Position numbers and translations under genes: made by a program
Shown: positions 3 through 32,000 of the stretch, piece by piece
Layout of the letters: each line of letters begins with the position of its first letter
Numbering within the stretch: position 1 is the stretch's first letter
Assembly (NCBI RefSeq): GCF_025273655.1
Contig: NZ_CP045921.1
Span: 750,001-782,000, forward strand
From: Candidatus Saccharimonadota bacterium
Lineage (GTDB): Bacteria; Patescibacteriota; Saccharimonadia; Saccharimonadales; Saccharimonadaceae
Direction of reading: 5' to 3'
DNA length: 32,000 nt
Notes under the pieces: generated by a model
Databases searched by the model: none
The model's input: only the letters and a program-made list of their open reading frames with translations
What the model was told of the DNA's origin: nothing

Positions 3-1508
3 ATGCAGCATGTGATTGATTACGCTATCGACCCGAAAAACGATATTGACGTTATCCTTGTCAAATCCATCGACCGTTTCACCCGCGCTGGTGCGATGGT
101 GTACGAGCAGCTCAAAAAACAGCTCGAACCCCGTGGTGTCCATCTTGAAGACATGTACGGCGTGATTAGTAATGCAAAGATCAACACGCTAGAGCATCTC
201 GGTATGGAGTATAAGTGGAGCGTTACCACACCGTCACGTAAAACAGAGTTACTTGAGGCAGAACGTGCCAAAGACGAGGTACGCGATATTCTAACGCGCA
301 TGATTGGCTCGGAAATCCGCTACACACAGATCGGCTACTGGTCACGTGCAGCGCTATACGGATATGAAACGAGCAAGCTTGAAACCGTGAACGGTAAACG
401 AGCTATTCTTGTGCCGCAAACCGACCAAGCGCCTATTATTCGTAAGATGTACGATATGCGAGCCTCTGGCATCTACAGTGACGACCAAATAGCCGATGAA
501 ATGAACCGGCTTGGTTTTCAAACTCCAATCAAGGTAATTCGCGACAAGCTAGACCGGACTAAGATTGTGAGGCGTTCTGGCGGCAAGAAAATGACCGGCA
601 AGCTGCTGCGCGTCTATGTTGCAAAGACTATTTATGCAGGCGTGAATACTGAAAAGTGGACTGGCGATAAGCCGGTGCTATGTAAGTTTGATGGTTTAGT
701 GTCTATCGAGTTATGGAATAAAGCCAATCGCGGCAAAATCAGTATTGCACTCAATCCTGATGATCCAGACCACCCAACCGTTACCCGTGCGCCTAAGCAA
801 GAGAAATTTGCAAAGAAGAACGTATATAACGAGGAGTTCCCATATCGCAAAGTGGTGCTCTGTCCTGAATGTAGCAATCCGTTGCTTGGGAGCGCTTCTC
901 GTGGCAAGTCGGGCAAATACTACCCTGCATATCACTGTAGTCACCACGGTCACTATTTCCGCGTTCCTAAAGGCGAGTTCGATGACAAGATAAATCAATT
1001 CATTGAGCGCGTTATCGTCGATCCTGCGCGTTTTGACGAGGTTCTAAAGGCCGTACAGACCGTGTGGGAGCAACGCCAAGTGCGTGTGCAGGACGAGGGT
1101 GAACTACGCGATAAGAAGCGCGAGGAGCTTGAGGCTCAGATGCGCGTTATTGTAGACAAAATGAGGCTTGTGTCATCACCGACGGCAATTAAATACATGG
1201 AGGAGGACTTAACTAAAATAGAGCAGCAAATTAACGATTTAGATGCTCGTAAAGGCGAGCTAGAAACGCAAGGAGGCGTCGATATGCCAACAATCTTGAA
1301 ATATATAGAATACTTTGTGGAACACCTCAAAGAATTGCTCATCGACCACTGTAACCCGATACTTCGAGCACGTTATTTTGGGGTATTATTCGACAAAATG
1401 CCAAGCTATGCAGAAATAGATTGTGGAACACCAGAAAATGAAAAAGTTCCAGAGGTCAACGAGCTTTTCAAGCTTGTATTGTCTGGAACGTCTTCATTGG
1501 TGCGGTGA
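3..1508 (+). CDS. Large serine recombinase, 5'-truncated by the window edge
   Basis: The frame is open from the window edge. It shows the resolvase-domain tail (VILVKSIDRFTRAG), a recombinase domain, a Zn-ribbon (CPECSNPLLG...YHCSHHGH) and a C-terminal coiled-coil. The catalytic Ser region should lie upstream of the window. The TGA stop at 1506-1508 lies inside the tRNA-Leu 3' end. Confidence 0.85.
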   Translation: MQHVIDYAIDPKNDIDVILVKSIDRFTRAGAMVYEQLKKQLEPRGVHLEDMYGVISNAKINTLEHLGMEYKWSVTTPSRKTELLEAERAKDEVRDILTRMIGSEIRYTQIGYWSRAALYGYETSKLETVNGKRAILVPQTDQAPIIRKMYDMRASGIYSDDQIADEMNRLGFQTPIKVIRDKLDRTKIVRRSGGKKMTGKLLRVYVAKTIYAGVNTEKWTGDKPVLCKFDGLVSIELWNKANRGKISIALNPDDPDHPTVTRAPKQEKFAKKNVYNEEFPYRKVVLCPECSNPLLGSASRGKSGKYYPAYHCSHHGHYFRVPKGEFDDKINQFIERVIVDPARFDEVLKAVQTVWEQRQVRVQDEGELRDKKREELEAQMRVIVDKMRLVSSPTAIKYMEEDLTKIEQQINDLDARKGELETQGGVDMPTILKYIEYFVEHLKELLIDHCNPILRARYFGVLFDKMPSYAEIDCGTPENEKVPEVNELFKLVLSGTSSLVR

Positions 1509-1585
1509 AGAGGACTTGAACCTCCACGAGCGCAATGCTCACTAGCCCCTCAAGCTAGCGCGTCTACCAATTCCGCCACCACCGC
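1498..1585 (-). tRNA. tRNA-Leu (anticodon GAG), type II with long variable arm, CCA encoded
   Basis: I folded the reverse complement GCGGTGGTGGCGGAATTGGTAGACGCGCTAGCTTGAGGGGCTAGTGAGCATTGCGCTCGTGGAGGTTCAAGTCCTCTTCACCGCACCA by hand. It gives a 7-bp acceptor stem, a 3-bp D stem, anticodon stem CTAGC/GCTAG with loop TTGAGGG (GAG, G37), variable arm GAGC-ATTGC-GCTC, and a T arm GGAGG-TTCAAGT-CCTCT. Confidence 0.9.
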
Positions 1586-1769: not shown

Positions 1770-3572
1770 TTACGGTGTTTTGTAAACAGGTGCTTGATGC
1801 GTCGACCAGTAAATGACATCGTTAAATCGGTCCGTAGCAGTGATAAGTGTCGTGCCAGAGTCGAAAGCTGTCGAGTCTTTTGTGTGCACATACGTCATTT
1901 GCGACTGGTAAAGACCAAGTGCCGGTGCATCTTTGAGCCATTGGCGTACAAATGCCTGGTACTTGGCGTTGCGCAGGCCATCTTCGAGGCGCAGTCTCGC
2001 ACTCACCAGCGCATCATCACTAATACCATTGCTGTAGTTTGAGAAATTAAGTCCACGTTCCACGGCCTGCGACGAATGCCAAAACGCATAGACATCCGGA
2101 TCGGCACCCAAATACAACTCGTGCACCAGCACATCGAAATCACGCGGCTGCAGCACACTACTTGCTAAATTCTGCGTAGGATCGCTTGTGTCGACGGTGC
2201 GCAGCTGCGCCTTGACACCTAGGCGACGCCACTGCGAGACCAGACTTTCCACCACGCCCTCGTAGTCAGCCCCCTTGATGGTCACGACATTGAGCGTCAA
2301 GACTTCGTCGCCTTTTTTACGCTCACCTGTGGGAGATTTCTTCCAACCCGCCTCATCGAGTAGCCGCTCGGCGCGTGTCTTATCGTAGGCAGGCTTGGCT
2401 ATACCCGAAACATCCGTCTGACTAGAGAGTATCGGCGTCTCTAGCGGAGATACTTTTACCGGCAGTGACTTGAGTGCGGCATTGATATCCGTGCCCGCCT
2501 GCAACGCCTGGCGCACCTCCACACTGCTTAATGCTCCCGTAGAACGTGTGTTGAAAAGCGCATACACGCCGGCATGCACCGGACTAAGCGAGGCGGCATA
2601 CGCCGGATCGTCCACAAACTGACTATAGTCCGCAAGAGATACGCCGTTGACCGCATTGACAGCATGGCTACGAATCGCTCGTGACAAACTATCGCTCGCA
2701 CCATAAGAATGCAGCTGGAAACGCTCGATCTTGGGCGTGCCACCATAATAGCTCGCATTTTGATTCATGTGCACGACTACATGCGCGTCTCGGCCTTGAA
2801 TATCTTGACGCAACTTGAAGCTAAATGGGCCTGAACCAACAGGCTGCGCGCTAAATCGACTATCGCGCAACGCGCCGGGAGTAATCTTCTGCAATATATG
2901 TTGGGGAACAACGGCAAATGTGAGTGCGTTTGGAAACGGCGCGTATGTCGACGGCAACATGAAATCAACAGTTCGAGTATCGATTTTTTTTACCTCGACA
3001 TTTTGCCAGCTTGCACTAGTTGGTATGCTGGTAGCTGGATTTTTGATCAGACCAACCGTAAACACCACATCGTCGGCCGTAAGCTTCGCATGATCGTGCC
3101 AAAGTACATTTGGGCGGAGCGTTACCCTATAGCGCTTACCTTCGTCGAGCACAGACACGTTTTCGGCCAGATCGCCGCGTAGCTTGCCTGTTTTGTCATA
3201 GGTAAGAAGACTGGAAAACATCAAGCGCGAGACAGCTTGTTCACCGGGTGTCGATGCATAAAGCGGATTGAGCGTCTTGATTTCGCCCCGCACGCCTTCC
3301 GCATACGTGCCGCCGGATCCTCCCGCGTATGTGATGTATGACGACTGAAACAAAAAAAATTGAGTTGCTGCAACTGCAATCAACACACCCATGCCGAGCA
3401 ACCACAGTGCAATATTACGCCGAACTTCACGAGCACTATGCAGCCGTTTGATAATGAAGCGATGTGCGTGCTTCACAGAAGCATTTTCGGCACGTTTCGC
3501 TCTCTCCGAAAACTTTCCCGACTTCACACTCAGGCGCTGAAATCGGTTCCATTTCTTTTCAGAATCGGCCAC
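1770..3572 (-). CDS. Membrane-anchored ABC transporter substrate-binding protein, family 5 (Opp/Dpp peptide type)
   Basis: The 600-aa ORF has a basic N-terminus and one TM helix (IALWLLGMGVLIAVAATQFFLF), followed by a large SBP_bac_5-like domain. It has a GTG start. It is co-directional with and close to secG. Confidence 0.75.
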   Translation of the reverse strand: MADSEKKWNRFQRLSVKSGKFSERAKRAENASVKHAHRFIIKRLHSAREVRRNIALWLLGMGVLIAVAATQFFLFQSSYITYAGGSGGTYAEGVRGEIKTLNPLYASTPGEQAVSRLMFSSLLTYDKTGKLRGDLAENVSVLDEGKRYRVTLRPNVLWHDHAKLTADDVVFTVGLIKNPATSIPTSASWQNVEVKKIDTRTVDFMLPSTYAPFPNALTFAVVPQHILQKITPGALRDSRFSAQPVGSGPFSFKLRQDIQGRDAHVVVHMNQNASYYGGTPKIERFQLHSYGASDSLSRAIRSHAVNAVNGVSLADYSQFVDDPAYAASLSPVHAGVYALFNTRSTGALSSVEVRQALQAGTDINAALKSLPVKVSPLETPILSSQTDVSGIAKPAYDKTRAERLLDEAGWKKSPTGERKKGDEVLTLNVVTIKGADYEGVVESLVSQWRRLGVKAQLRTVDTSDPTQNLASSVLQPRDFDVLVHELYLGADPDVYAFWHSSQAVERGLNFSNYSNGISDDALVSARLRLEDGLRNAKYQAFVRQWLKDAPALGLYQSQMTYVHTKDSTAFDSGTTLITATDRFNDVIYWSTHQAPVYKTP

Positions 3573-3579
3573 TGAAGTA

Positions 3580-3810
3580 TTACGCTCCTAGAGCAGGTAG
3601 CAGCAATGATGCCAAGATAGACAGCACAAACACAACTGCCACGATAATAGTGAACTCGAACAGGTTTTTGTCGATACCACGACGCGATGTAAACAACTCG
3701 CCCGAGCTACCGAATCCCGCACCAAGACTTGCGCCACGCTGCTGTAGCAAAATTGCCGTCGTCATCAAAATTCCCGAGCCCACAATCGCAATCTGTAATG
3801 CTGTATCCAT
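3580..3810 (-). CDS. secG: Preprotein translocase subunit SecG
   Basis: The 76-aa product has two TM helices flanking the Gly-rich loop LLQQRGASLGAGFGSSGELF. An SD (gagaggaag) lies upstream. Confidence 0.8.
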   Translation of the reverse strand: MDTALQIAIVGSGILMTTAILLQQRGASLGAGFGSSGELFTSRRGIDKNLFEFTIIVAVVFVLSILASLLLPALGA

Positions 3811-3812
3811 AT

Positions 3813-4205
3813 CTATGCTTCCTCTCTCTTTTTGATCACCTGGAGTTCCAAGGCGCTACTTACTATATAGTTTATCAGACTTAATAGCATTCCGGCAAAA
3901 ATCGAGTTGAGGAATGTCATCTCAAGCCCAGGAGTAAGCTGAATCGCGAGCCACACCACAAAGCCATTGACGATAAAAATGAAGAGGCCTAGTGTCACTA
4001 GTATCGCGGGTAGCGATAGAATAATCACCACGGGTCGAAGTAGCGTATTGAGAATCGAGAACACAAGACCAGCTAGCAGAAAAAGCCAGATGCTTTCGTC
4101 GATCTGCTGATCCGACACACCTGTGCCGAGCAGACGTACAGCCACCCACAACCCAAATGAATTGAGAAGCCAGCGGACTATAAATACGGCAAATTGACGT
4201 CGCAT
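3813..4205 (-). CDS. 4-TM membrane protein of the 'phage holin 4 / YvlD-like' family
   Basis: The 130-aa product has four hydrophobic helices and an N-terminus (FIVRWLLNSFGLWVAVRLL) typical of that family. Confidence 0.6.
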   Translation of the reverse strand: MRRQFAVFIVRWLLNSFGLWVAVRLLGTGVSDQQIDESIWLFLLAGLVFSILNTLLRPVVIILSLPAILVTLGLFIFIVNGFVVWLAIQLTPGLEMTFLNSIFAGMLLSLINYIVSSALELQVIKKREEA

Positions 4206-11413: not shown

Positions 11414-11420
11414 CTCAAAA

Positions 11421-11449
11421 ACACCCTGCCGCATTGCAGGGTGTTTTTA
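11421..11449. terminator. Bidirectional rho-independent terminator
   Basis: The 9-bp stem is acaccctgc/gcagggtgt with a 6-nt loop. It is flanked by an A-run (5') and a T-run (3'). It sits between the convergent sORF and the PhnB-like gene. Confidence 0.75.
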
Positions 11450-18449: not shown

Positions 18450-18599
18450 CGCCCTTTTCTGCTTGCAGGCTTAAAAACACTATGACATAATAAAATTCAC
18501 TATGATTCCACTGGAATCCTCTACTCACACATGTTCGGATGAGTCGAACCGCTAGTGACATATCACTTTTTCATTTACAATTAACTACGGGAGGTTCGC

Positions 18600-20381
18600 T
18601 TGAAACTTTTTAGCAGAACAAACAGCAGCACAACTAAAAAAACGATTAATATATACAAGGAAGAGCTCAAAGAAGATAAAAAGCAATTCATCATTGCGAC
18701 AATTCTTGTGCCCATGCAGCATCTGCTCTACGTTGTACTGCTCCCATTGATCATCAGCTTCTTCACACAGTCGCTAATCACCAGCTCGCATAATTTCACT
18801 ACACCACTGCTTCTCATAGGTTTTATGGCACTTATATCACTCATGGCAATTATCGTAGGACACTTCGGCTACCTTGCTCTTTTCAAACATGAGGAAAGTA
18901 TGACCACAAAGCTCACTGAGCGCGCGCTCACTGGCCTACTTCGCCATAGCCACAGTTTCTTCGCAAACAACAAAGTCGGCGCGTTAGCCGGTGACGTCAA
19001 CACGTTCAGCCGTTCGTACATGTCAATATTTGACACTATTGCCCTACAAGCGACAAGTATTGTTGTCAACTATACCGCTAGCCTCATCATTGTCGCATTC
19101 ATCGCACCGATTATGTTGCCTGCGCTCATCTTGTTAACCGGCTTCATCATCTACGACGCGCTTCGTTCGTACAGTGCGCGTGCTGAGTATCGCACTGAGC
19201 GCAAAGAGCTTCAGTCAAAACTTTTTGGTAATTTCGCCGATATACTCGGAAATCAAACGCTTGTGCGCATGTTCGGCACAAGTCGCCAAGAGATAAAAAA
19301 CACTGTCGCACAACGCCGTCATATAGAATCAATTGCCAATCAAGAAATCGATATACTCCAGCGCGGTGCCGAGACTCGCATGGGTGTACTGTTTTCGTTT
19401 CAGATTCTGACACTTCTACTATGTCTAGTCCTGATCACACGTGATGCACTCTCTATTGCGGCGCTGATATTTATCATCACCTATCTCGGACGCGTTACGG
19501 GCTCACTTTTTGCTATTAATGGCATTATAAGAGGGCTCGAACAGGCATTTCTCGACGCAGCGAAAGTTACGGAGATTCTCGACCAGCCGCCAGAAATAGT
19601 TGATCAACCACATGCCAAAAAACTTGAAGTGTCGCATGGCAATATCTCACTGAACGATGTCTCATTCACCTACCAAGATGCCAAAGATAGACCCGTGTTC
19701 AAACGTGTACAGTTGGACATACCTGCTGGTCAAAGTGTCGGACTTGTCGGCAAGAGTGGTGGGGGTAAATCAACCCTCACGCACCTGCTTCTCAGATATA
19801 TGGATATCGGCTCTGGCGAGATATCCATAGATGGACATAATATCGCTACAGTCACGCAAGATAGTCTGCGCTCACACATCGCTTATGTCCCTCAAGATCC
19901 CTATCTGTTTCATCGTAGCCTTTCCGAAAACATCGCTTACGGCAAACCAGACGCCACCGAGCCAGAGATTCGTGCAGCAGCAGAGAAGGCTCACGCAGTC
20001 GAGTTCATCGATAATTTACCGCAAGGACTTGATACAATCGTAGGCGAGCGTGGCGTCAAACTAAGTGGCGGGCAGCGGCAGCGCATCGCTATTGCTCGCG
20101 CAATACTCAAAGACGCGCCAATCCTCGTACTCGACGAAGCAACATCTGCGCTAGACTCGGAGAGCGAAAAGCTCATCCAGGAATCACTCGAAACGCTCAT
20201 GCGTGGTCGAACTAGCATAGTGATCGCTCATCGACTCTCCACCATCGCCAAACTCGATCGCATCATCGTGCTTGAACAAGGCAAAATTATCGAAGATGGA
20301 ACACATACTGAACTCCTGAATAAGAGGGGTATCTATGCCAAGCTCTGGAAACACCAAAGCGGCGGCTTTATCGAAGAGTAA
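18600..20381 (+). CDS. ABC transporter permease/ATP-binding protein (type I exporter, MsbA-like half transporter)
   Basis: It has six N-terminal TM helices, Walker A (GKSGGGKST), the signature LSGGQRQR, and Walker B (ILVLDEATSALD). It has a TTG start with GGGAGG 5 nt upstream. Confidence 0.9.
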   Translation: MKLFSRTNSSTTKKTINIYKEELKEDKKQFIIATILVPMQHLLYVVLLPLIISFFTQSLITSSHNFTTPLLLIGFMALISLMAIIVGHFGYLALFKHEESMTTKLTERALTGLLRHSHSFFANNKVGALAGDVNTFSRSYMSIFDTIALQATSIVVNYTASLIIVAFIAPIMLPALILLTGFIIYDALRSYSARAEYRTERKELQSKLFGNFADILGNQTLVRMFGTSRQEIKNTVAQRRHIESIANQEIDILQRGAETRMGVLFSFQILTLLLCLVLITRDALSIAALIFIITYLGRVTGSLFAINGIIRGLEQAFLDAAKVTEILDQPPEIVDQPHAKKLEVSHGNISLNDVSFTYQDAKDRPVFKRVQLDIPAGQSVGLVGKSGGGKSTLTHLLLRYMDIGSGEISIDGHNIATVTQDSLRSHIAYVPQDPYLFHRSLSENIAYGKPDATEPEIRAAAEKAHAVEFIDNLPQGLDTIVGERGVKLSGGQRQRIAIARAILKDAPILVLDEATSALDSESEKLIQESLETLMRGRTSIVIAHRLSTIAKLDRIIVLEQGKIIEDGTHTELLNKRGIYAKLWKHQSGGFIEE

Positions 20382-22770: not shown

Positions 22771-22810
22771 AAGAAAAAGAAGTGCTATCATCCTAGCACT
22801 TCTTTTTCAG
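22771..22810 (-). terminator. Rho-independent terminator downstream of rplY
   Basis: The arms aaaaagaagtgcta (22774-22787) and tagcacttcttttt (22794-22807) are perfectly complementary with a 6-nt loop. A T-run follows on the minus strand. Confidence 0.7.
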
Positions 22811-27308: not shown

Positions 27309-27605
27309 ATGAAACAGCGAGTCGTAGTACTGGGTATCGTCTTTTTGCTACTCTTTGCATTGGCCAAATCCGGTATCATCGATTCACTGTTTATCTTCCT
27401 GCTCGTCGGCGCCATACCGGGCACAACCTGGTCATTGCCAGCTAGTTTTATGCTCACAGTATCGTTTGTGGCCGTCACCCTTCTGGCGATCCGCTACACC
27501 ATCGTCGCAATCCTCGACGAGCGAGACCTGCGGCGCCGCACGCAGAAATACATCGCCCGGCGCGAGCGTATGCCAAAGAAGCGCTTTCGCTCTATTCCTC
27601 GCTAG
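27309..27605 (+). CDS. Hypothetical small membrane protein with a basic C-terminal tail
   Basis: The 98-aa product has 2-3 hydrophobic helices and then RDLRRRTQKYIARRERMPKKRFRS. An SD is present. Its 3' end overlaps sbcB by 14 nt. Confidence 0.5.
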   Translation: MKQRVVVLGIVFLLLFALAKSGIIDSLFIFLLVGAIPGTTWSLPASFMLTVSFVAVTLLAIRYTIVAILDERDLRRRTQKYIARRERMPKKRFRSIPR

Positions 27606-29025
27606 TATCCGGCTCGGCTGGCTCTGGCATGATCGATTCAAACCATAGTTTGAGCTCGGTGAGCACGAACTGCTGATGATCGGTCAACTCAGCAGCAGCG
27701 ACTTTCTGCATATCCTGCATGAACTGCGGCGCTTTTGCCTGCAGATGTGCGGCTCGCCACGTTTCGTAACTCGCCAACTCCTCCGGTGTCGACTGCCGCG
27801 GAAAATTACGAGCTTTGTAGCGAGGGAAGAGCGCGGACAGGCGCGCATCATCGAACTCTGGTTTGTAGAGTTTGAGATCTTTCATGTCCGTATTGCGCAG
27901 CACTTCACTACGGAGTTTGTCACGGTCGCTTATGAAGCCATCGTACAGTTGCCCCTCTGCATCAGATATCGGTGGCCAGTCGGGCTTCTTCATAAGTACG
28001 TTCGCCACTCGCCCGGCGAATTCAGGATGCGAGAGGAGTAGTGCACGATGTTTTTCTATTGTCGCTTGGTTGAGTTGTAGCTTGGCCCAGCCGTCTTCTT
28101 GACTTAGCACGCCGAGGGGTGCCACTGCTGGCGCACGGTTGTATTGCAGCTTCTTTACAGGCAGCTTCCGATAGTCATCACCGCGATCGGCGTATGGAGT
28201 AAACAGAATATCGGCCAACTCTTTCTCGCTCTTACTGGTCCAATCCGTCGGATCGTAACGTAGATCATACACAAACACATTGCCATAATCTGCCGCGGCG
28301 AGTGGAAGCGCTACGGTCGTCTTATCGTGGTCGGCATCATAGCGACCCGAGCTGTAGACAAACGGCTGCTTGTCGTCGAGATTTACCAATTTCTGAATCT
28401 CTTTCTTGTTACGAAGTTTGAGAAGATACTGGAAAAGTTGCGGCTGCTGCGCGGCGATCAGTTTCGTCACGCCGATCAGTGCTACCACATCGCTTAGTGC
28501 ATCGTGCGCTTTCTCATGCGCTAGCCCGTTTTCTGCGCTCAGAAGCTCGAGCTTATTAACAGCTTTGCCGTCAACTGTCGGCCATTTGATACCATCTGGT
28601 CGCAGTGCCCGCGTCATGCGCACCACGTCGAGCATATCCCAGCGCGAACGACCGTCTTTCCAGGTCCATTCGTACGGATCGTAATAATTTCGCCACAAAA
28701 ACGCACGCATAAACTCATCGTCGAAACGGATACTGTTGTAACCCAGCATGATAGTGTCCGGCGTAGCGATCTCCTCCATGAAGATCTTGGCAAACTGTGC
28801 CTCGGTATAGCCGTCTGCCACCGTTTCCTGTGGCGTCACACCTGTCACCATGAGTGCATACGGACTTGGCAGTGTATCGTCGTTTAGCGCTACCAGCAGA
28901 TTGTACGACTCGCCTATTGGGTTGAAATTCATGTCAGTGCGCTGCCCGGCGAACTGCATGATCCGGTCTTCGCGCGGGTTGAGGCCGGTCGTCTCGAGGT
29001 CGTAAAAGAAGAAAGTTTGTGCCAT
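27592..29025 (-). CDS. sbcB: Exodeoxyribonuclease I
   Basis: It has a DEDDh exonuclease N-terminus (FFFYDLETTGLNPREDRIMQFAG, ...HDALSDV) and ExoI SH3-like/C-terminal regions. At 477 aa the length is typical. Confidence 0.85.
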   Translation of the reverse strand: MAQTFFFYDLETTGLNPREDRIMQFAGQRTDMNFNPIGESYNLLVALNDDTLPSPYALMVTGVTPQETVADGYTEAQFAKIFMEEIATPDTIMLGYNSIRFDDEFMRAFLWRNYYDPYEWTWKDGRSRWDMLDVVRMTRALRPDGIKWPTVDGKAVNKLELLSAENGLAHEKAHDALSDVVALIGVTKLIAAQQPQLFQYLLKLRNKKEIQKLVNLDDKQPFVYSSGRYDADHDKTTVALPLAAADYGNVFVYDLRYDPTDWTSKSEKELADILFTPYADRGDDYRKLPVKKLQYNRAPAVAPLGVLSQEDGWAKLQLNQATIEKHRALLLSHPEFAGRVANVLMKKPDWPPISDAEGQLYDGFISDRDKLRSEVLRNTDMKDLKLYKPEFDDARLSALFPRYKARNFPRQSTPEELASYETWRAAHLQAKAPQFMQDMQKVAAAELTDHQQFVLTELKLWFESIMPEPAEPDTSEE

Positions 29026-29034
29026 CTATGTACT

Positions 29035-29040
29035 ACTATA
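29035..29040 (-). promoter_or_regulatory. -10 box TATAGT, 9 nt upstream of the sbcB ATG
   Basis: The minus strand reads gtgTATAGTagtacatagATG. Confidence 0.4.
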
Positions 29041-29097
29041 CACGATCCCTCTGTCATTCTTGCTTCGATCCAGAGTAACAGATGGAGACTTTTGCCC

Positions 29098-29129
29098 AAA
29101 AAAGCGAAGAGTCCTGCTAGGCAGGACTC
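29098..29129 (-). terminator. Rho-independent terminator closing the GC-rich unit
   Basis: The minus strand reads gagtcctgc-cta-gcaggactc followed by ttcgctttttt. It lies just upstream of the sbcB promoter. Confidence 0.6.
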
Positions 29130-29295
29130 GTATGTGCGGATGGTTTAGATACATCGGTCGTGGCCCGCAGGAGGCGCAGCTAAATCAATCGATATACATC
29201 GAGATTACTGCAGCACTCACTGCGGACCGCACGTGTTCCGGAATCAACCTGCTCGCAATGCAGGGAGCCGTAGAACACAAAATACAAAGTTGGGT

Positions 29296-29348
29296 GGCCA
29301 CCCAGGACGATGAGACGATCGATTGTCTCCGGCGCGTCCTGGGTGGCC
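29296..29348. repeat. 14-bp perfect inverted repeat (ggccacccaggacg / cgtcctgggtggcc), 25-nt spacer with a nested 5-bp stem
   Basis: The arms are 29296-29309 and 29335-29348. The spacer contains gagac-gatcgatt-gtctc. The left arm is part of the palindrome tgggtggccaccca. Confidence 0.8.
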
Positions 29349-29563
29349 CGGTGTTCCCTACGATGGCAAAGCTGATGCTCTACCTGGGCGGCGACCGGAT
29401 AGCCACTTGTACTCCTTCCGAAAAAATCATTCGACAGAGTTCCTGGCGGACGTCAGGAAATCGACAGGTGTCCGCTGTAGCATGAACCACCGGGGCTCAT
29501 CGCGGATGCGGTGCATCCAAATCTCCTTTCAGTAAACTTCGGGCACGCGGCACCGGCTGATGG

Positions 29564-29731
29564 TCAGGACTTGGAACTGATTCCGACGTCGGGGACGCCG
29601 CCGATCGCGGTGCCGGACAGGTAGCCGCTGGTGAGAACGCCGGAGGTGACGAGGGGCTCGAAGCCGGTCTGGTTGACCTTGGCGATTTCGGGACTCTTCT
29701 TCAGGGAGATGGTGGAACCGGAGGGGGCCAT
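29564..29731 (-). CDS. Candidate 55-aa Gly/Ser/Thr-rich small protein, no family recognised
   Basis: The product is MAPSGSTISLKKSPEIAKVNQTGFEPLVTSGVLTSGYLSGTAIGGVPDVGISSKS. An SD (aggag) lies 5 nt upstream of the ATG. 48 of 54 internal codons end in G/C. Confidence 0.45.
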   Translation of the reverse strand: MAPSGSTISLKKSPEIAKVNQTGFEPLVTSGVLTSGYLSGTAIGGVPDVGISSKS

Positions 29732-29778
29732 GATGGCTCCTGTTCTGCGCCGAAGCACATTGTTGGGTACCAGACTGG

Positions 29779-29832
29779 ATTGTGTCGGGCTTCACACTCA
29801 CCCACTTAGATGACCACAAAGCCCGACACAAT
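29779..29832. repeat. 14-bp perfect inverted repeat (attgtgtcgggctt / aagcccgacacaat), 26-nt spacer, in the sORF leader
   Basis: The arms are 29779-29792 and 29819-29832. A TAGAAT hexamer (minus strand) overlaps the promoter-proximal arm by 2 nt. Confidence 0.8.
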
Positions 29833-29914
29833 TCTACAAACTTGTATGAAGTATCTAAATTGTCAACGTACATGTACCAAAGGAAGTATGCACCTCAACT
29901 TTAGCATTGTATAC

Positions 29915-29943
29915 ATATTAGCATATTTTGTATTTTTTGTCAA
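29915..29943 (-). promoter_or_regulatory. Near-consensus sigma70 promoter: TTGACA - 17 nt (ending TGc) - TAATAT
   Basis: The minus strand reads ttgaca aaaaatacaaaatatgc taatat. It starts 10 nt after the obg stop and fires toward the GC-rich unit. Confidence 0.55.
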
Positions 29944-29952
29944 TTATATTTC

Positions 29953-31269
<1,317 letters not shown>

Positions 31270-31280: not shown

Positions 31281-31281
31281 A

Positions 31282-31309
31282 AATTGCCTCTATATTGATA
31301 GAGGCAATT
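31282..31309 (-). terminator. Hairpin terminator downstream of the CHAP hydrolase gene
   Basis: The 11-bp perfect stem is aattgcctcta/tagaggcaatt with a 6-nt loop, followed by a short T-run on the minus strand. Confidence 0.5.
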
Positions 31310-31332
31310 TGCGTATTTGTCAAACCTAGATC

Positions 31333-32000
31333 CTAGTGAATAAAGTTGTAGTTACTAGCTTGGCTCATAGGAATAGTACGACTCGAGACAACATTGAAGC
31401 CTGCGTAATTCATCTCACTGATCGTAAATGAATCTCCATTGATTGTTTCTACAATTGCAACGTGTCCGTAACCAGCATAGCCACCACCATTTTGCAGGAT
31501 TGCGCCCGGTGCAGGTGTCTTGTTCACAGTGAAGCCTGCCGCCTGTGCATTGATAGCCCAGGTCGAAGCGTTACCCCAGAAGCTACCGATAGGGCGACCC
31601 AGTTGAGCACGGCGCTCATATGCGTACCATGTACAGTTACCAAATGCATAACGGTTGCCGACAGATGCAGACGCGTTTGCAAGTCCCGCCGTGCTACTGA
31701 ATGAGCCTGTACTTTGGCCATTCGACATTTGTGTAGAAGCGGCCGCTGGAGTCGACGCAGGGTCGGCTGGCTTTTGGCCGCCAGGCACGATGAGTTGCAT
31801 ATTGCCATGAATTCCATTTACCTCGAGATCATTGAAGCTAACAATACGCTCAGGCTGCGTCTTCATCTGATCGGCAATCGATTGAACCGAATCTCCGTCT
31901 TTCGTAGTATAGAGCACGCCATCGACCGGCAAGATGACAACATCTCTTCCGGCTTCAACCGCGTCCGACTGAAGGTTATTTGCCCATTTAACAGTCTGCG
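31333..32000 (-). CDS. LysM-like + CHAP (NlpC/P60 superfamily) peptidoglycan hydrolase, 5'-truncated by the window edge
   Basis: It has a CHAP domain (FGNCTWYAYERR...GYGHVAIVE) preceded by LysM-like segments (YTTKDGDSVQSIADQM...). The reading frame stays open upstream of the track's TTG to position 32000. Confidence 0.8.
   Translation of the reverse strand, partial: QTVKWANNLQSDAVEAGRDVVILPVDGVLYTTKDGDSVQSIADQMKTQPERIVSFNDLEVNGIHGNMQLIVPGGQKPADPASTPAAASTQMSNGQSTGSFSSTAGLANASASVGNRYAFGNCTWYAYERRAQLGRPIGSFWGNASTWAINAQAAGFTVNKTPAPGAILQNGGGYAGYGHVAIVETINGDSFTISEMNYAGFNVVSSRTIPMSQASNYNFIH

Follow-up and report, generated by a model that had tools for sequence, protein, structure and literature searches.

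Two perfect inverted repeats that lie between the obg and exoI genes of a member of the Saccharibacteria are best explained as helices at the base of two long stem-loops in the RNA of a single minus-strand unit with its own transcription, an interpretation to which we assign a probability of about 0.6. The hairpins themselves are real: they are conserved with compensatory changes in other species, and they are flanked by a promoter and a terminator that are conserved as well. The models used here suggest that the unit is transcribed and translated, and its hairpins probably stabilise or process the RNA.

Two conserved hairpins between obg and exoI

Both repeats, IR1 and IR2, lie on the minus strand within the 927-bp obg–exoI spacer of the window, by which we mean the whole 32,000-nt stretch of DNA that was analysed. 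The arms of IR1 span 29779-29792 and 29819-29832 (ATTGTGTCGGGCTT / AAGCCCGACACAAT) and are 26 nt apart, and those of IR2 span 29296-29309 and 29335-29348 (GGCCACCCAGGACG / CGTCCTGGGTGGCC) and are 25 nt apart; in each case the 14 nt are 100% complementary. Our repeat search agrees exactly with the coordinates, arm length, perfect pairing, and spacers of the initial annotation, which had also described a nested gagac/gtctc stem in the IR2 spacer. This stem is present (29312-29316 and 29325-29329) and is predicted by folding to pair. The placement of IR1 inside the leader of a small ORF (sORF) was correct: 47 nt separate its end from the ATG of a 55-aa sORF (29731..29564, minus strand). IR2, which had been put about 215 nt downstream of this sORF, begins 216 nt past its stop.

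Such repeats had been called unexpected in 32 kb, and they are. None of at least 14 bp with a spacer of 3-60 nt occurred in 60 first-order Markov simulations of the 32-kb window, those of at least 12 bp had a mean of 0.08 per simulated window in the same simulations, and the analytic expectation for 14-bp inverted repeats is ~32000 x 58 / 4^14, or ~0.007 per window. The real window has three of at least 14 bp. The third, at 22773-22808, ends in T/A runs and we read it as a bidirectional terminator. The arms of IR1 and IR2 are unrelated, and no further copy of them was found in the 32-kb window with up to 2 mismatches. Each is confined to its own hairpin and hence there is no dispersed repeat family, which fits the earlier view that the arms are not copies of one repeat. 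A MITE, a REP element, or an IS200/IS605-type end was rejected on similar grounds, given single-copy, unrelated arms and the lack of a transposase domain in the 32-kb window.

In minus-strand RNA, IR1 is the base of a hairpin that we call P1 (29779..29832), with 14 perfect basal pairs, about 24 pairs in total when G·U pairs are included, and a 4-nt loop (folding z-score of -6.9). The predicted energy is -33.9 kcal/mol for minus-strand RNA against -27.4 for the plus strand. In the window and in the homologues L004, L005a, and L083, the sense strand gives the better fold by 5.5 to 14.7 kcal/mol, and it is 7–11 kcal/mol more stable in 8 of the 9 family leader hairpins scanned, and also in L005a. 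In these folding models, the asymmetry of IR1 favours minus-strand RNA. The P1 stem is kept in the three homologues, with compensatory changes from C-G to A-U and from G-C to A-U. Across these 4 sequences, which amount to few independent lineages, 92.9% of the cells are paired, compared with 27-46% when the partners are slid, two pairs show a double compensatory change, and one has become U·G. The upper part of the stem is unalignable between species, though it is paired in every homologue. The arms are 26, 28, 33, and 41 nt apart across homologues, a variability that fits a hairpin, which tolerates it, and not a protein operator with two half-sites. The sequence that follows IR1 is CCAGUCUGGUACCC, without a U run.

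As the first hairpin of a conserved 3' domain, IR2 (29296..29348, minus strand) combines a perfect basal stem of 14 bp with an asymmetric internal loop, an inner stem of 5 bp, and a loop of 8 nt; its predicted energy is -39.3 kcal/mol (z = -5.3 on the minus strand). Its homologue in L005a and L083 reads GGTCACCCGAGACAG, 23 nt, CTGTCTCGGGTGACC. Across the three sequences, effectively 2 lineages, 14 of the 14 pairs are kept with 100% pairing, and there are four double changes and no single ones. This pairing score was reached by only 5 of 500 shuffles, and RNAalifold yields the same helix. The pair counts for both hairpins left out the alignment made by the covariance model, which mixed in reverse-strand palindrome matches. 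IR2-type hairpins are purely Watson-Crick and have no strand asymmetry; it is from their context that we argue for a role at the RNA level. After IR2 comes ACCCAACUUUGUAUUUUG, where a U-rich stretch begins 7 nt past the stem. In a second strain, 99.1% identical, one substitution in the stem of IR2 (T29340G) is left uncompensated, and the 55-aa sORF has a 1-nt deletion, although this lies 24 nt from a contig end. Hence, neither the IR2 stem nor this sORF is strictly invariant within the species. The initial annotation had offered RNA hairpins acting in processing or stability as one candidate function, and this reading survives the tests of conservation with compensation, strand, and coding frame.

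A predicted transcription unit with small ORFs

The hairpins are framed by predicted expression signals, all on the minus strand. A promoter scan identified TTGACA, 17 nt, and TAATAT at 29915..29943, with 10 of 12 consensus matches and a TG extension before the -10 element. The promoter starts 10 nt past the obg stop codon; an alignment shows that L004 and L005 conserve it, and the same promoter type heads every related module. About 3-4 nt past the predicted transcription start lies the hairpin P0 (29877..29904; CUAAAG..GAGG..CUUC..CUUUGG), which belongs to the RNAalifold consensus. All 15 leaders examined have a predicted hairpin, which in 14 is at the place of P0; the window's own 48-nt fold puts it elsewhere, and the call there comes from the RNAalifold consensus. 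The P0 stem varies in sequence by module (CUAAAG/CUUUGG, CUUCAG/CUGAGG, AUCAAG/CUUGAU, and GGUCGGG/CCCGAACC). Between P0 and P1, a single-stranded box at 29852..29866 reads TTGACAATTTAGATA, with the family consensus TTGAYARKYTRRATA (UUGACAAnUUrGAUA). Between P1 and the ribosome-binding site there is a small hairpin, P2 (29746..29759; UGUGC-UUCG-GCGCA), found in the minimum free energy (MFE) folds of both the transcript and the leader, and a small hairpin occupies the equivalent place in L005a, L083, L097, and L108a. Another promoter-like site, TTTAGA, 17 nt, TAGAAT (29859-29831), overlaps IR1; we attribute it to chance, as homologues do not conserve it.

On the 3' side, the domain from IR2 to the terminator is alignable between the window and L005a/L083. 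It includes a helix at 29162..29228, present in the MFE fold, in which GGUCCGCAG (29228-29220) pairs with CUGCGGGCC (29170-29162) around a local hairpin; it aligns with the L005a/L083 helix GCCCGCAGAG, 59 nt, CTCTGCGGGC. An intrinsic terminator at 29099..29129, GAGTCCTGC-cta-GCAGGACTC followed by TTCGCTTTTTT, was found both by a terminator scan (29129-29109) and in the transcript fold, and equivalent terminators end the modules of L004, L005a, L083, L030, L062, L108, and L057. Intrinsic terminators consist of a G+C-rich stem, a loop of 3-8 nt, and a U run immediately after it. We rejected this class for IR1 and IR2, which have no immediate U run and arms 25-26 nt apart, above the loop size. 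The suggestion that they are terminators lacking a T tract finds no support either, because the canonical terminator lies further downstream.

These elements predict that the spacer is its own minus-strand unit of ~0.8 kb, from a start at ~29908 to the terminator at ~29100. The predicted RNA of 811 nt folds as a whole with -320 kcal/mol (z = -6.8). The MFE fold also contained a hok-like fold-back of the 5' end on the 3' end, which we discarded since neither in the window nor in L005a or L083 were the duplex energies better than with shuffled partners.

The first sORF, sORF1, was called by the gene caller and encodes 55 aa (MAPSGSTISLKKSPEIAKVNQTGFEPLVTSGVLTSGYLSGTAIGGVPDVGISSKS). With its Shine-Dalgarno (SD) sequence, AGGAG at 29741-29737, it spans 29564..29741 (ATG at 29731, stop ending at 29564). 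Its GC content by codon position is 0.50/0.55/0.88, with C at 0.71 of third positions (C3), against a GC3 of 0.44-0.60 and a C3 of 0.27-0.29 in the neighbouring genes; no ribosomal protein gene is available for codon comparison within the 32-kb window. A predicted sORF2 follows (29427..29529), with AAAGGAG at 29529-29523 and an ORF of 29 aa (MHRIRDEPRWFMLQRTPVDFLTSARNSVE) at 29516..29427. Its frame has a secondary GC3 signal of 0.7-0.8, and on this sequence evidence it may be coding. A frameshifted pseudogene of a high-GC gene was also considered for this region and rejected, as the GC3 signal past sORF1 is only weak and secondary and is better explained by sORF2. Reading the sequence further, we noted an SD (GGAAGGAG, 29419-29412) before a putative mini-ORF of 8 codons starting with GTG at 29406 (MAIRSPPR*; 29380..29419 in all), and SD plus mini-ORF units of similar kind occur in L004, L108, and L057. 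The codon bias is common in the family: the first sORF has a GC3 of 0.82–0.95 in 9 of 11 cases, whereas exoI has 0.36–0.64 in the same genomes. Word-indexed and exhaustive phmmer searches of 5.8 billion and 1.84 billion proteins retrieved only sORF1 itself, and Pfam gave no match for sORF1, a 117-aa plus-strand ORF, or the 114-aa and 70-aa ORFs of the spacer.

A family of modules upstream of exoI

The same layout is found upstream of exoI in ~15 other Saccharibacteria loci, and the window has all the ordered parts of this module, from promoter through terminator. The order is a near-consensus promoter, P0, the box, the long G·U-containing P1, and P2, then a strong SD with at least one tiny ORF of extreme C-ending codon bias, and finally at least one long, nearly perfect hairpin such as IR2 and the intrinsic terminator. 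The box was aligned across 15 modules. Its motif has 11 matches on both strands of 1.24 Mb, and all 11 are inside exoI-upstream modules in the sense of exoI. All leaders found by the covariance model R1 lie upstream of exoI, and the independent members have scores of 39 bits for L108b, 27 for L005b, and 18-25 for L057, L062, L078, L035, and L030; the window scores 137.6 bits as one of the 4 training sequences. Some genomes have tandem copies (L108, L005, and L089).

The position itself is variable. The gap upstream of exoI is below 100 bp in 104 loci and 300-1400 bp in the remainder, with differing cargo. This cargo includes a 166-aa protein in L089 that has close relatives only, and proteins of ~300 aa in oral TM7 for which we found no significant Pfam domain. 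A blastn search of the whole module against phage and plasmid collections gave no match that would point to a mobile-element origin.

The leader and trailer are conserved, while the part between them, which appears to be coding, is replaced wholesale between species. The coding sequences (CDS) of the window, L005a, and L083 have no similarity above that of shuffles, and the flanks score 230. The segment that diverges completely among the three lies between IR1/P2 and IR2; in L005a/L083, one exchange boundary falls on the start codon and the other on the last few codons, at 40-50 nt from the hairpins. L005a and L083 are 87% identical in the leader and 94% in the 3' domain, and their CDS are unrelated. 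L097 and L108a share 190 nt of the 3' domain at ~93% identity (an estimate from the alignment), with a frame-breaking 2-nt indel in a hairpin loop; their sORFs differ by indels that are in frame (6 and 12 nt) and have a poorly conserved interior. The 3'-domain sequence differs between clades, and blastn identified no 3' core common to the modules.

At gathering thresholds, none of the 4227 families of Rfam 15 matches the spacer of the window or of 14 related loci, and with E values up to 10 there are only chance-level matches to eukaryotic families. ARAGORN found no tRNA or tmRNA in the spacer. Two Rfam motifs of TM7, lysM-TM7 (RF03005) and MDR-NUDIX (RF02918), are also lineage-restricted structured RNAs of Saccharibacteria intergenic regions. 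An Rfam scan placed the former two genes away in relatives and the latter within the window. Yet neither model matches the obg-exoI spacer, and both precede a fixed gene family, whereas the exoI-upstream leader precedes variable sORFs. Literature searches returned no description of the exoI-upstream element. The family is an undescribed, locus-specific one, found in a subset of Saccharibacteria immediately upstream of exoI.

Interpretation and significance

Under the preferred explanation, P0 and P1 on the 5' side, and IR2 and the terminator on the 3' side, would shield the transcript from exonucleases. The hairpins may double as RNase III-type processing sites that delimit a stable core RNA. 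Together with the promoter, the SD, and the codon bias, they would make a very-high-expression cassette for a fast-evolving micropeptide. RNase III sites are double-stranded stems of about two helical turns, at least 20 bp, with internal loops allowed. In the predicted folds, P1 with ~24 bp is long enough for a double-strand-specific RNase, IR2 is borderline (14 + 5 bp with an internal loop), and the leader hairpins of other modules have 20-27 bp. Hairpins that stabilise cistrons or flank them as RNase III sites are known from the R1.1-type sites of phage T7 early mRNA, the 5' stabiliser of Bacillus phage SP82, and the 5' stem-loops of ompA and ermC. The likeness lies in long stem-loops in both UTRs of a short, strongly expressed message (here predicted), in P0 lying within a few nt of the predicted 5' end, and, for the T7 sites, in the asymmetric internal loop of IR2. 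Unlike these systems, the exoI-upstream leader has a conserved single-stranded box and is restricted to a single locus, the upper P1 stem is hypervariable and rich in G·U, and the message between the hairpins is exchanged among species. A point against this explanation is that P0 is already a 5'-terminal hairpin, ahead of the far longer P1.

A dual-function or purely regulatory structured RNA is a rather unlikely alternative. In this case, IR1 and IR2 would be within the conserved 5' and 3' domains of an RNAIII-like scaffold with other RNAs or proteins as its targets, and the sORFs would be secondary or incidental. Dual-function RNAs with an embedded small ORF include RNAIII/hld of Staphylococcus aureus, SR1/SR1P of Bacillus, and SgrS/SgrT. 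Like them, the present unit is predicted to yield an RNA in the range of 0.5-0.8 kb with extensive structure, driven by a strong promoter of its own and closed by its own terminator; a small ORF occupies the 5' half, and the non-coding domains exceed the ORF in conservation. The excess of flank over sORF conservation between L005a and L083, the frame-breaking indel in the 3' domain of L097/L108a next to a poorly kept sORF interior, the strong structure of the whole transcript, and the possible frameshift of sORF1 in the second strain all speak for it. However, the strong SDs and the very strong third-position GC bias are difficult to account for unless the sORFs are translated, those of L097 and L108a differ by in-frame indels, and the 3' domains differ between clades with no core shared by blastn. 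In contrast to the known examples, the unit has several heavily codon-biased sORFs that are unrelated between species, and no C-rich seed loops, regulator, target, or partner could be named for it.

That the hairpins act as DNA, as cruciform or single-strand sites for a recombinase or transposase that swaps cassettes, or as regulator sites, is quite improbable. The initial annotation had listed sites of this kind, and the position upstream of exoI is indeed a variable hotspot whose swapped segment (in the window, L005a, and L083) lies between IR1/P2 and IR2. IR2-type hairpins, being perfectly Watson-Crick and free of strand bias, look as expected for pairing in DNA. Yet IR1 and the other leader hairpins have many G·U pairs, whose counterparts in the opposite strand and in double-stranded DNA are mismatched, and the arms of IR1 and IR2 are unrelated, so a single site-specific enzyme would not recognise both. 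Moreover, the exchange boundaries lie off the hairpins, the arms have no other copies in 32 kb and their spacing differs between homologues, and a Pfam survey of the surroundings returned housekeeping genes with no nearby recombinase, integrase, or transposase (a faint Recombinase match is 28 kb off). The recombinase-site reading is therefore disfavoured overall, least firmly for IR2. We also rejected an integron attC site. These sites are imperfect palindromes with RYYYAAC/GTTRRRY core sites, in cassette arrays beside an IntI integrase. Neither hairpin has such core sites, each module has its own promoter, and there is no integrase among the neighbouring genes, which are obg, exoI, uvrA, and a LysM/CHAP gene.

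A type I toxin-antitoxin-like system, where the structured 5' UTR with IR1 blocks translation of a small toxic peptide until the RNA is processed and an antisense RNA counteracts the toxin, is very improbable. Type I toxins are small, hydrophobic, membrane-active peptides, and the antitoxin RNA is antisense or adjacent with its own promoter. As in the mRNAs of hok/sok, fst, aapA/IsoA, and zorO/orzO, a strong promoter and a long structured leader precede an sORF of less than 60 aa, the 3' part is structured, and the locus is intergenic between conserved genes with tandem duplications (L108, L005, and L089). Of the 10 family sORFs, only that of L004, with 23 aa, exceeds a Kyte-Doolittle mean of 1.6 over 19 residues; its maximum of 2.0 makes it strongly hydrophobic. 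The other nine reach at most 0.98 and lack a transmembrane-like segment, including sORF1 of the window (0.98; sORF2 has 0.02), and most of the peptides are hydrophilic, with much Ser, Thr, and Gly. A consensus scan of 28900-30100, from which weak or non-canonical promoters could escape, found no sigma-70-like promoter on the plus strand for an antisense RNA. Furthermore, in contrast to the type I mRNAs, sequestration of the SD is inconsistent across the predicted folds, and the extreme codon optimisation would be unexpected in a silenced toxin.

Finally, it is hardly credible that the repeats are functionless, as chance palindromes or as part of the plus-strand 117-aa ORF (29132-29485) that the gene caller predicted over IR2, even if a close strain tolerates an IR2 mismatch, because the simulations contained no such repeat, other species keep both stems through compensatory changes, and the arms lie outside any conserved frame: the ORF has a flat GC by codon position (0.57/0.50/0.59) and no Pfam match, its sole match is a 98%-identical copy in the same species, it has no counterpart in the homologous L005 region, and the L005 and L083 hairpins are in no related ORF.

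Returning to the two stem-loops of a minus-strand unit, one may tentatively go further and consider the obg/exoI spacer as a Saccharibacteria-specific expression scaffold, in which an ancient structured leader and trailer are kept and a micropeptide core, always in extreme C/G-ending codons that set it apart from the rest of the genome, is swapped wholesale between lineages, the long hairpins making the cassette both stable and exchangeable. Such loci, hypervariable and very highly expressed, would form a class of micropeptide or dual-function RNA genes in episymbionts that had escaped notice, and their products could be effectors or signals toward high-G+C actinobacterial hosts or phages. Like other Patescibacteria, Saccharibacteria are ultrasmall episymbionts. 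Small RNAs, noncoding RNAs, and small proteins go unmentioned in a 2024 perspective on the biology of these organisms, and none of the papers listed by a full-text search links Saccharibacteria with 'small ORF' or 'structured RNA'.

If the hairpins were merely ordinary UTR stabilisers, they would still be a clean case of compensatory evolution, and the automatic gene call of the 117-aa ORF is corrected in any case. The element would give this phylum one more RNA motif family, and its promoter, stabilising hairpins, and SD would be a natural high-expression cassette for the emerging genetic tools of Saccharibacteria. More broadly, a conserved, locus-specific structured leader and trailer around hypervariable, codon-optimised micro-ORFs would open a new way into the expression of fast-evolving small products by these bacteria, which may use them in interactions with hosts or phages.

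Genomic setting and anatomy of the obg-exoI spacer

Both 14-bp perfect inverted repeats lie in the 927-bp spacer (29952..29026) between obg (31260..29953) and exoI/sbcB (29025..27592), in a minus-strand series of genes running from a LysM/CHAP gene through obg and exoI to uvrA. A repeat search recovered them as initially annotated: the arms of IR1 are at 29779-29792 and 29819-29832 (26-nt spacer) and those of IR2 at 29296-29309 and 29335-29348 (25-nt spacer), with 14 nt and 100% complementarity in each case, and the spacer of IR2 does contain the nested stem gagac/gtctc. Such repeats had been considered unexpected by chance. In agreement with this, no inverted repeat of at least 14 bp with a spacer of 3-60 nt arose when the window was simulated 60 times with a first-order Markov model, whereas the window itself has three. 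The arms have no other copies within the 32-kb window with up to two mismatches, as expected from the claim that they are not a repeat family. The third repeat of at least 14 bp (22773-22808) ends in T/A runs. Together with 11417-11448 and 31281-31310 it accounts for the remaining long palindromes of the window, which are perfect repeats of 13-15 bp with loops of 4-6 nt. Two of these three have A-run/T-run ends (AAATT/AATTT in 31281-31310), and we read 22773-22808 and 31281-31310 as bidirectional intrinsic terminators.

The spacer holds a promoter-to-terminator unit on the minus strand, hereafter the module. A near-consensus promoter (TTGACA, 17 nt, TAATAT, with TG; 29943-29915) is found 10 nt past the obg stop, followed by a 5'-proximal hairpin, P0 (29904-29877), the conserved box TTGACAATTTAGATA (29866-29852), IR1 (29832-29779), and a small hairpin with a UUCG loop, P2 (29759-29746). 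Then come a small ORF of 55 aa, sORF1 (29731..29564), with an AGGAG Shine-Dalgarno (SD) 5 nt ahead of its ATG, and two mini-ORFs with SD, one of 29 aa (29516..29427) and one of 8 codons (29406..29380). The 3' part comprises IR2 (29348-29296), an additional helix (29228-29220 paired with 29170-29162), and a canonical intrinsic terminator with a T run (29129-29109). The unit's predicted RNA, 811 nt long, has a folding energy of -320 kcal/mol; shuffled sequences give -272 ± 7 (z = -6.8). The gene caller placed in the spacer the 55-aa sORF and an opposite-strand ORF of 117 aa spanning IR2.

The window is from a Saccharibacteria (TM7) genome: the best 80 relatives of its exoI in the genome collection all come from Saccharibacteria-type assemblies, one of which is titled Chloroflexi, and it has the TM7-associated MDR-NUDIX RNA described below. 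In the 140 related loci having both genes, obg and exoI are neighbours; their gap is below 100 bp in 104 and 300-1400 bp in the remainder, which makes the site immediately upstream of exoI a variable spot. Oral Saccharibacteria (L018, L020, L025, and similar loci) have a gap of ~970-1006 bp where the gene of a ~300-aa protein with no significant Pfam domain replaces the RNA/sORF module, and in L012 the spot is occupied by an unrelated ORF of 274 aa. A -10-like TATAGT with a preceding TG (29035-29040, minus strand), just 9 nt ahead of the exoI ATG (29025), is kept in relatives both with and without the module, and the exoI mRNA may be leaderless or nearly so.

Other features were observed in the window and its relatives. 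An MDR-NUDIX RNA (RF02918, 66.4 bits; 18499-18558, plus strand), a known TM7-associated cis-regulatory motif, lies directly 5' of an ABC-transporter ORF (18600-20381). The lysM-TM7 RNA (RF03005, 65-112 bits) was found upstream of obg, ~3 kb 5' of exoI, in L004, L005, L007, L010, L062, and L077, where it is placed before the LysM/CHAP gene (by synteny with L002); projected on the window, this position falls at base 32000 or beyond. An ORF of 501 aa (3-1508, plus strand) has only a faint match to Pfam 'Recombinase' (E = 0.008) and ends in or against tRNA-Leu(GAG) (1498-1585, minus strand), a junction that may mark the border of an integrated element or reflect an over-extended ORF. Finally, an ORF of 130 aa (3813-4205, minus strand), flanked by aminopeptidase P and solute-binding protein genes, matches 'Mycobacterial 4 TMS phage holin, superfamily IV' (E = 8e-21).

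IR1 and IR2 as probable RNA structures

The arms of IR1 stood as annotated, but its 26-nt "spacer" did not: it continues the stem, which reaches ~24 pairs via G·U on the minus-strand RNA. Four sequences could be aligned; in their 14-bp basal stem, standard pairs fill 92.9% of 56 cells, a share that falls to 27-46% once the 3' partners are slid. At two pairs both sides changed (C-G to A-U and G-C to A-U), and there is also one U·G pair and, in L005a, one U·U mismatch. The hairpin is more stable on the minus-strand RNA than on the plus strand (-33.9 vs. -27.4 kcal/mol), as are its homologues in L004 (-43.5 vs. -28.8), L005a (-28.0 vs. -17.8), and L083 (-41.3 vs. -33.3), and across the wider family 8 of the 9 leader hairpins prefer the sense strand by 7-11 kcal/mol. 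The upper stems are unalignable across species, yet paired in all, and the conserved arms are 26, 28, 33, or 41 nt apart. Compensation, strand asymmetry, always-paired upper stems, and variable arm distance, as judged from aligned sequences and predicted folds, argue for an RNA hairpin transcribed in the obg/exoI direction and against a two-half-site DNA operator. The functional hairpin proposed initially is thus favoured by both the compensatory changes and the minus-strand stability of the homologues.

The IR2 hairpin aligns base for base with that of L005a and L083 (GGTCACCCGAGACAG, 23 nt, CTGTCTCGGGTGACC), and all 14 pairs are retained in the three sequences. The compensatory covariation suggested as a check was found: there are double changes at four pairs and single-sided changes at none, a score reached by only 5 of 500 shuffles, and RNAalifold also recovered the helix. 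Few lineages underlie these structural comparisons of IR1 and IR2. In a second strain (99.1% identity over 28429-29653), the IR2 stem has one change that is not compensated (T29340G), and sORF1 has lost 1 nt close to the end of that strain's short contig. Hairpins of the IR2 type are pure Watson-Crick, with no strand bias; we infer that IR2 acts at the RNA level from its position within a conserved promoter-to-terminator unit.

Related modules and their putative coding cores

The promoter, P0, box, and IR1-type hairpin are common to the window and the spacers of L004, L005, and L083 (ExoI 79-82% identical), and the trailer, from IR2 to the terminator, is additionally shared with L005 and L083. 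More distant modules have different sequences in the same order: L108 (two in tandem), L097, L030, L062, L057, L078, L035, L010, L084, and L007, as well as L074, L077, L071, and L089, which have the order without the box. The order consists of a promoter of the TTGACA-17-TAnAAT type, with an upstream TG in most, a 5'-proximal hairpin followed by the box TTGAYARKYTRRATA, a long (20-27 bp) hairpin followed by SD and sORF, and one or more long near-perfect hairpins before a terminator. A covariance model built on four leaders, the window's own included, found further leaders solely upstream of exoI (L108b 39 bits, L005b 27, L057 25, L062 24.5, L078 22.7, L035 20.4, L030 18.6). The 11 matches of the box motif in 1.24 Mb, both strands searched, are all within modules and all in the exoI sense. 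The loci of L057, L078, and L035 have no match to obg (the upstream gene in L057 is another ORF), which links the module to the exoI side. No Rfam family matches the spacer of the window or the related modules, and the phage and plasmid collections gave no match to the module.

Tandem pairs of complete modules occur between obg and exoI in L108 (1619-3000), L005 (2667-4000), and L089 (1718-3000), where every module has a separate promoter and separate leader hairpins, plus a separate terminator where inspected (L108, L005). In L007 (3323-4000) and L084 (416-718) a strong SD, a mini-ORF of 3-4 codons (MLSM* and MRSI*, respectively), and a small GC hairpin come after the leader; L007 has four repeats of this ~103-155-nt unit at 100% identity. 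The motif GG(U/C)UUCAC(A)CCUAG, absent from the window's module, recurs in the 3' part of distant ones (L057 ~3570-3597; L108 ~1912-1925 and ~2663-2690; L074 ~3488-3535) and in three cases is the end of a mini-ORF (...RGFT* twice, ...SGFT* in L074).

The codon usage of sORF1 is strongly biased, with GC of 0.50/0.55/0.88 by codon position and C3 of 0.71, compared with GC3 of 0.44-0.60 and C3 of ~0.27-0.29 in window genes. The first post-leader sORF has a GC3 of 0.82-0.95 in 9 of 11 modules (0.36-0.64 in exoI of the same genomes). The peptides are mutually unrelated and mostly hydrophilic, half of them with at least 50% Ser, Thr, Gly, Pro, and Ala, and only one of ten has a transmembrane-like stretch. 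No relative of sORF1 was found by a word search of 5.8 billion proteins or by exhaustive phmmer on 1.84 billion representatives. The leaders of L005a and L083 are 87% identical and their trailers 94%, whereas the coding sequences (54 and 47 aa) are wholly different: homology extends up to the base preceding the ATG and restarts ~10 nt short of the stop codon's last base. A third, unrelated core occupies the window; its scores are no different from those of shuffles, against 230 for the flanks. The L097 and L108a sORFs have the same ends (MSPPS...GGFGD) and differ by in-frame indels of 6 and 12 nt; their trailers are ~93% identical over a stretch of 190 nt, in which the loop of a hairpin has a 2-nt indel. 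In our reading of these patterns, the sORFs would be translated and subject to fast turnover, and the flanks would be conserved functional RNA.

A candidate high-expression cassette

The best-supported explanation is that IR1 and IR2 are stem-loops in the 5' and 3' untranslated parts of an independently transcribed unit, predicted to be strongly expressed, whose coding core would evolve through replacement. The near-consensus promoter, the hairpin a few nt from the predicted 5' end, the second long hairpin, the strong SDs, the C-ending codons, and the hairpin-rich 3' end together point to a high-expression cassette. Judging from 5' stabilisers and phage T7-type sites, its hairpins may shield the RNA against exonucleases and/or act as RNase III-type processing sites. 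The main rival is an RNAIII-like dual-function or regulatory RNA, a reading supported by flanks that are better conserved than the sORFs. We disfavour the hairpins as DNA-level recombination sites for cassette exchange, given the G·U asymmetry, the unrelated arms of IR1 and IR2, the exchange breakpoints away from the hairpins, and the lack of a recombinase nearby. We likewise disfavour a locus of the type I toxin-antitoxin kind, because the peptides are mostly hydrophilic and a consensus scan of 28900-30100 showed no antisense promoter. Chance or coding sequence as the origin of the repeats is rejected.

Hairpins in untranslated regions are, as such, familiar elements. Rfam 15 has no entry for the module, no description of it was found in the literature searched, and we know of no earlier work describing its leader/trailer, box, and micro-ORF features together. 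The combination consists of a locus-specific conserved leader/trailer structure with a conserved single-stranded box and hypervariable, heavily codon-biased micro-ORFs.
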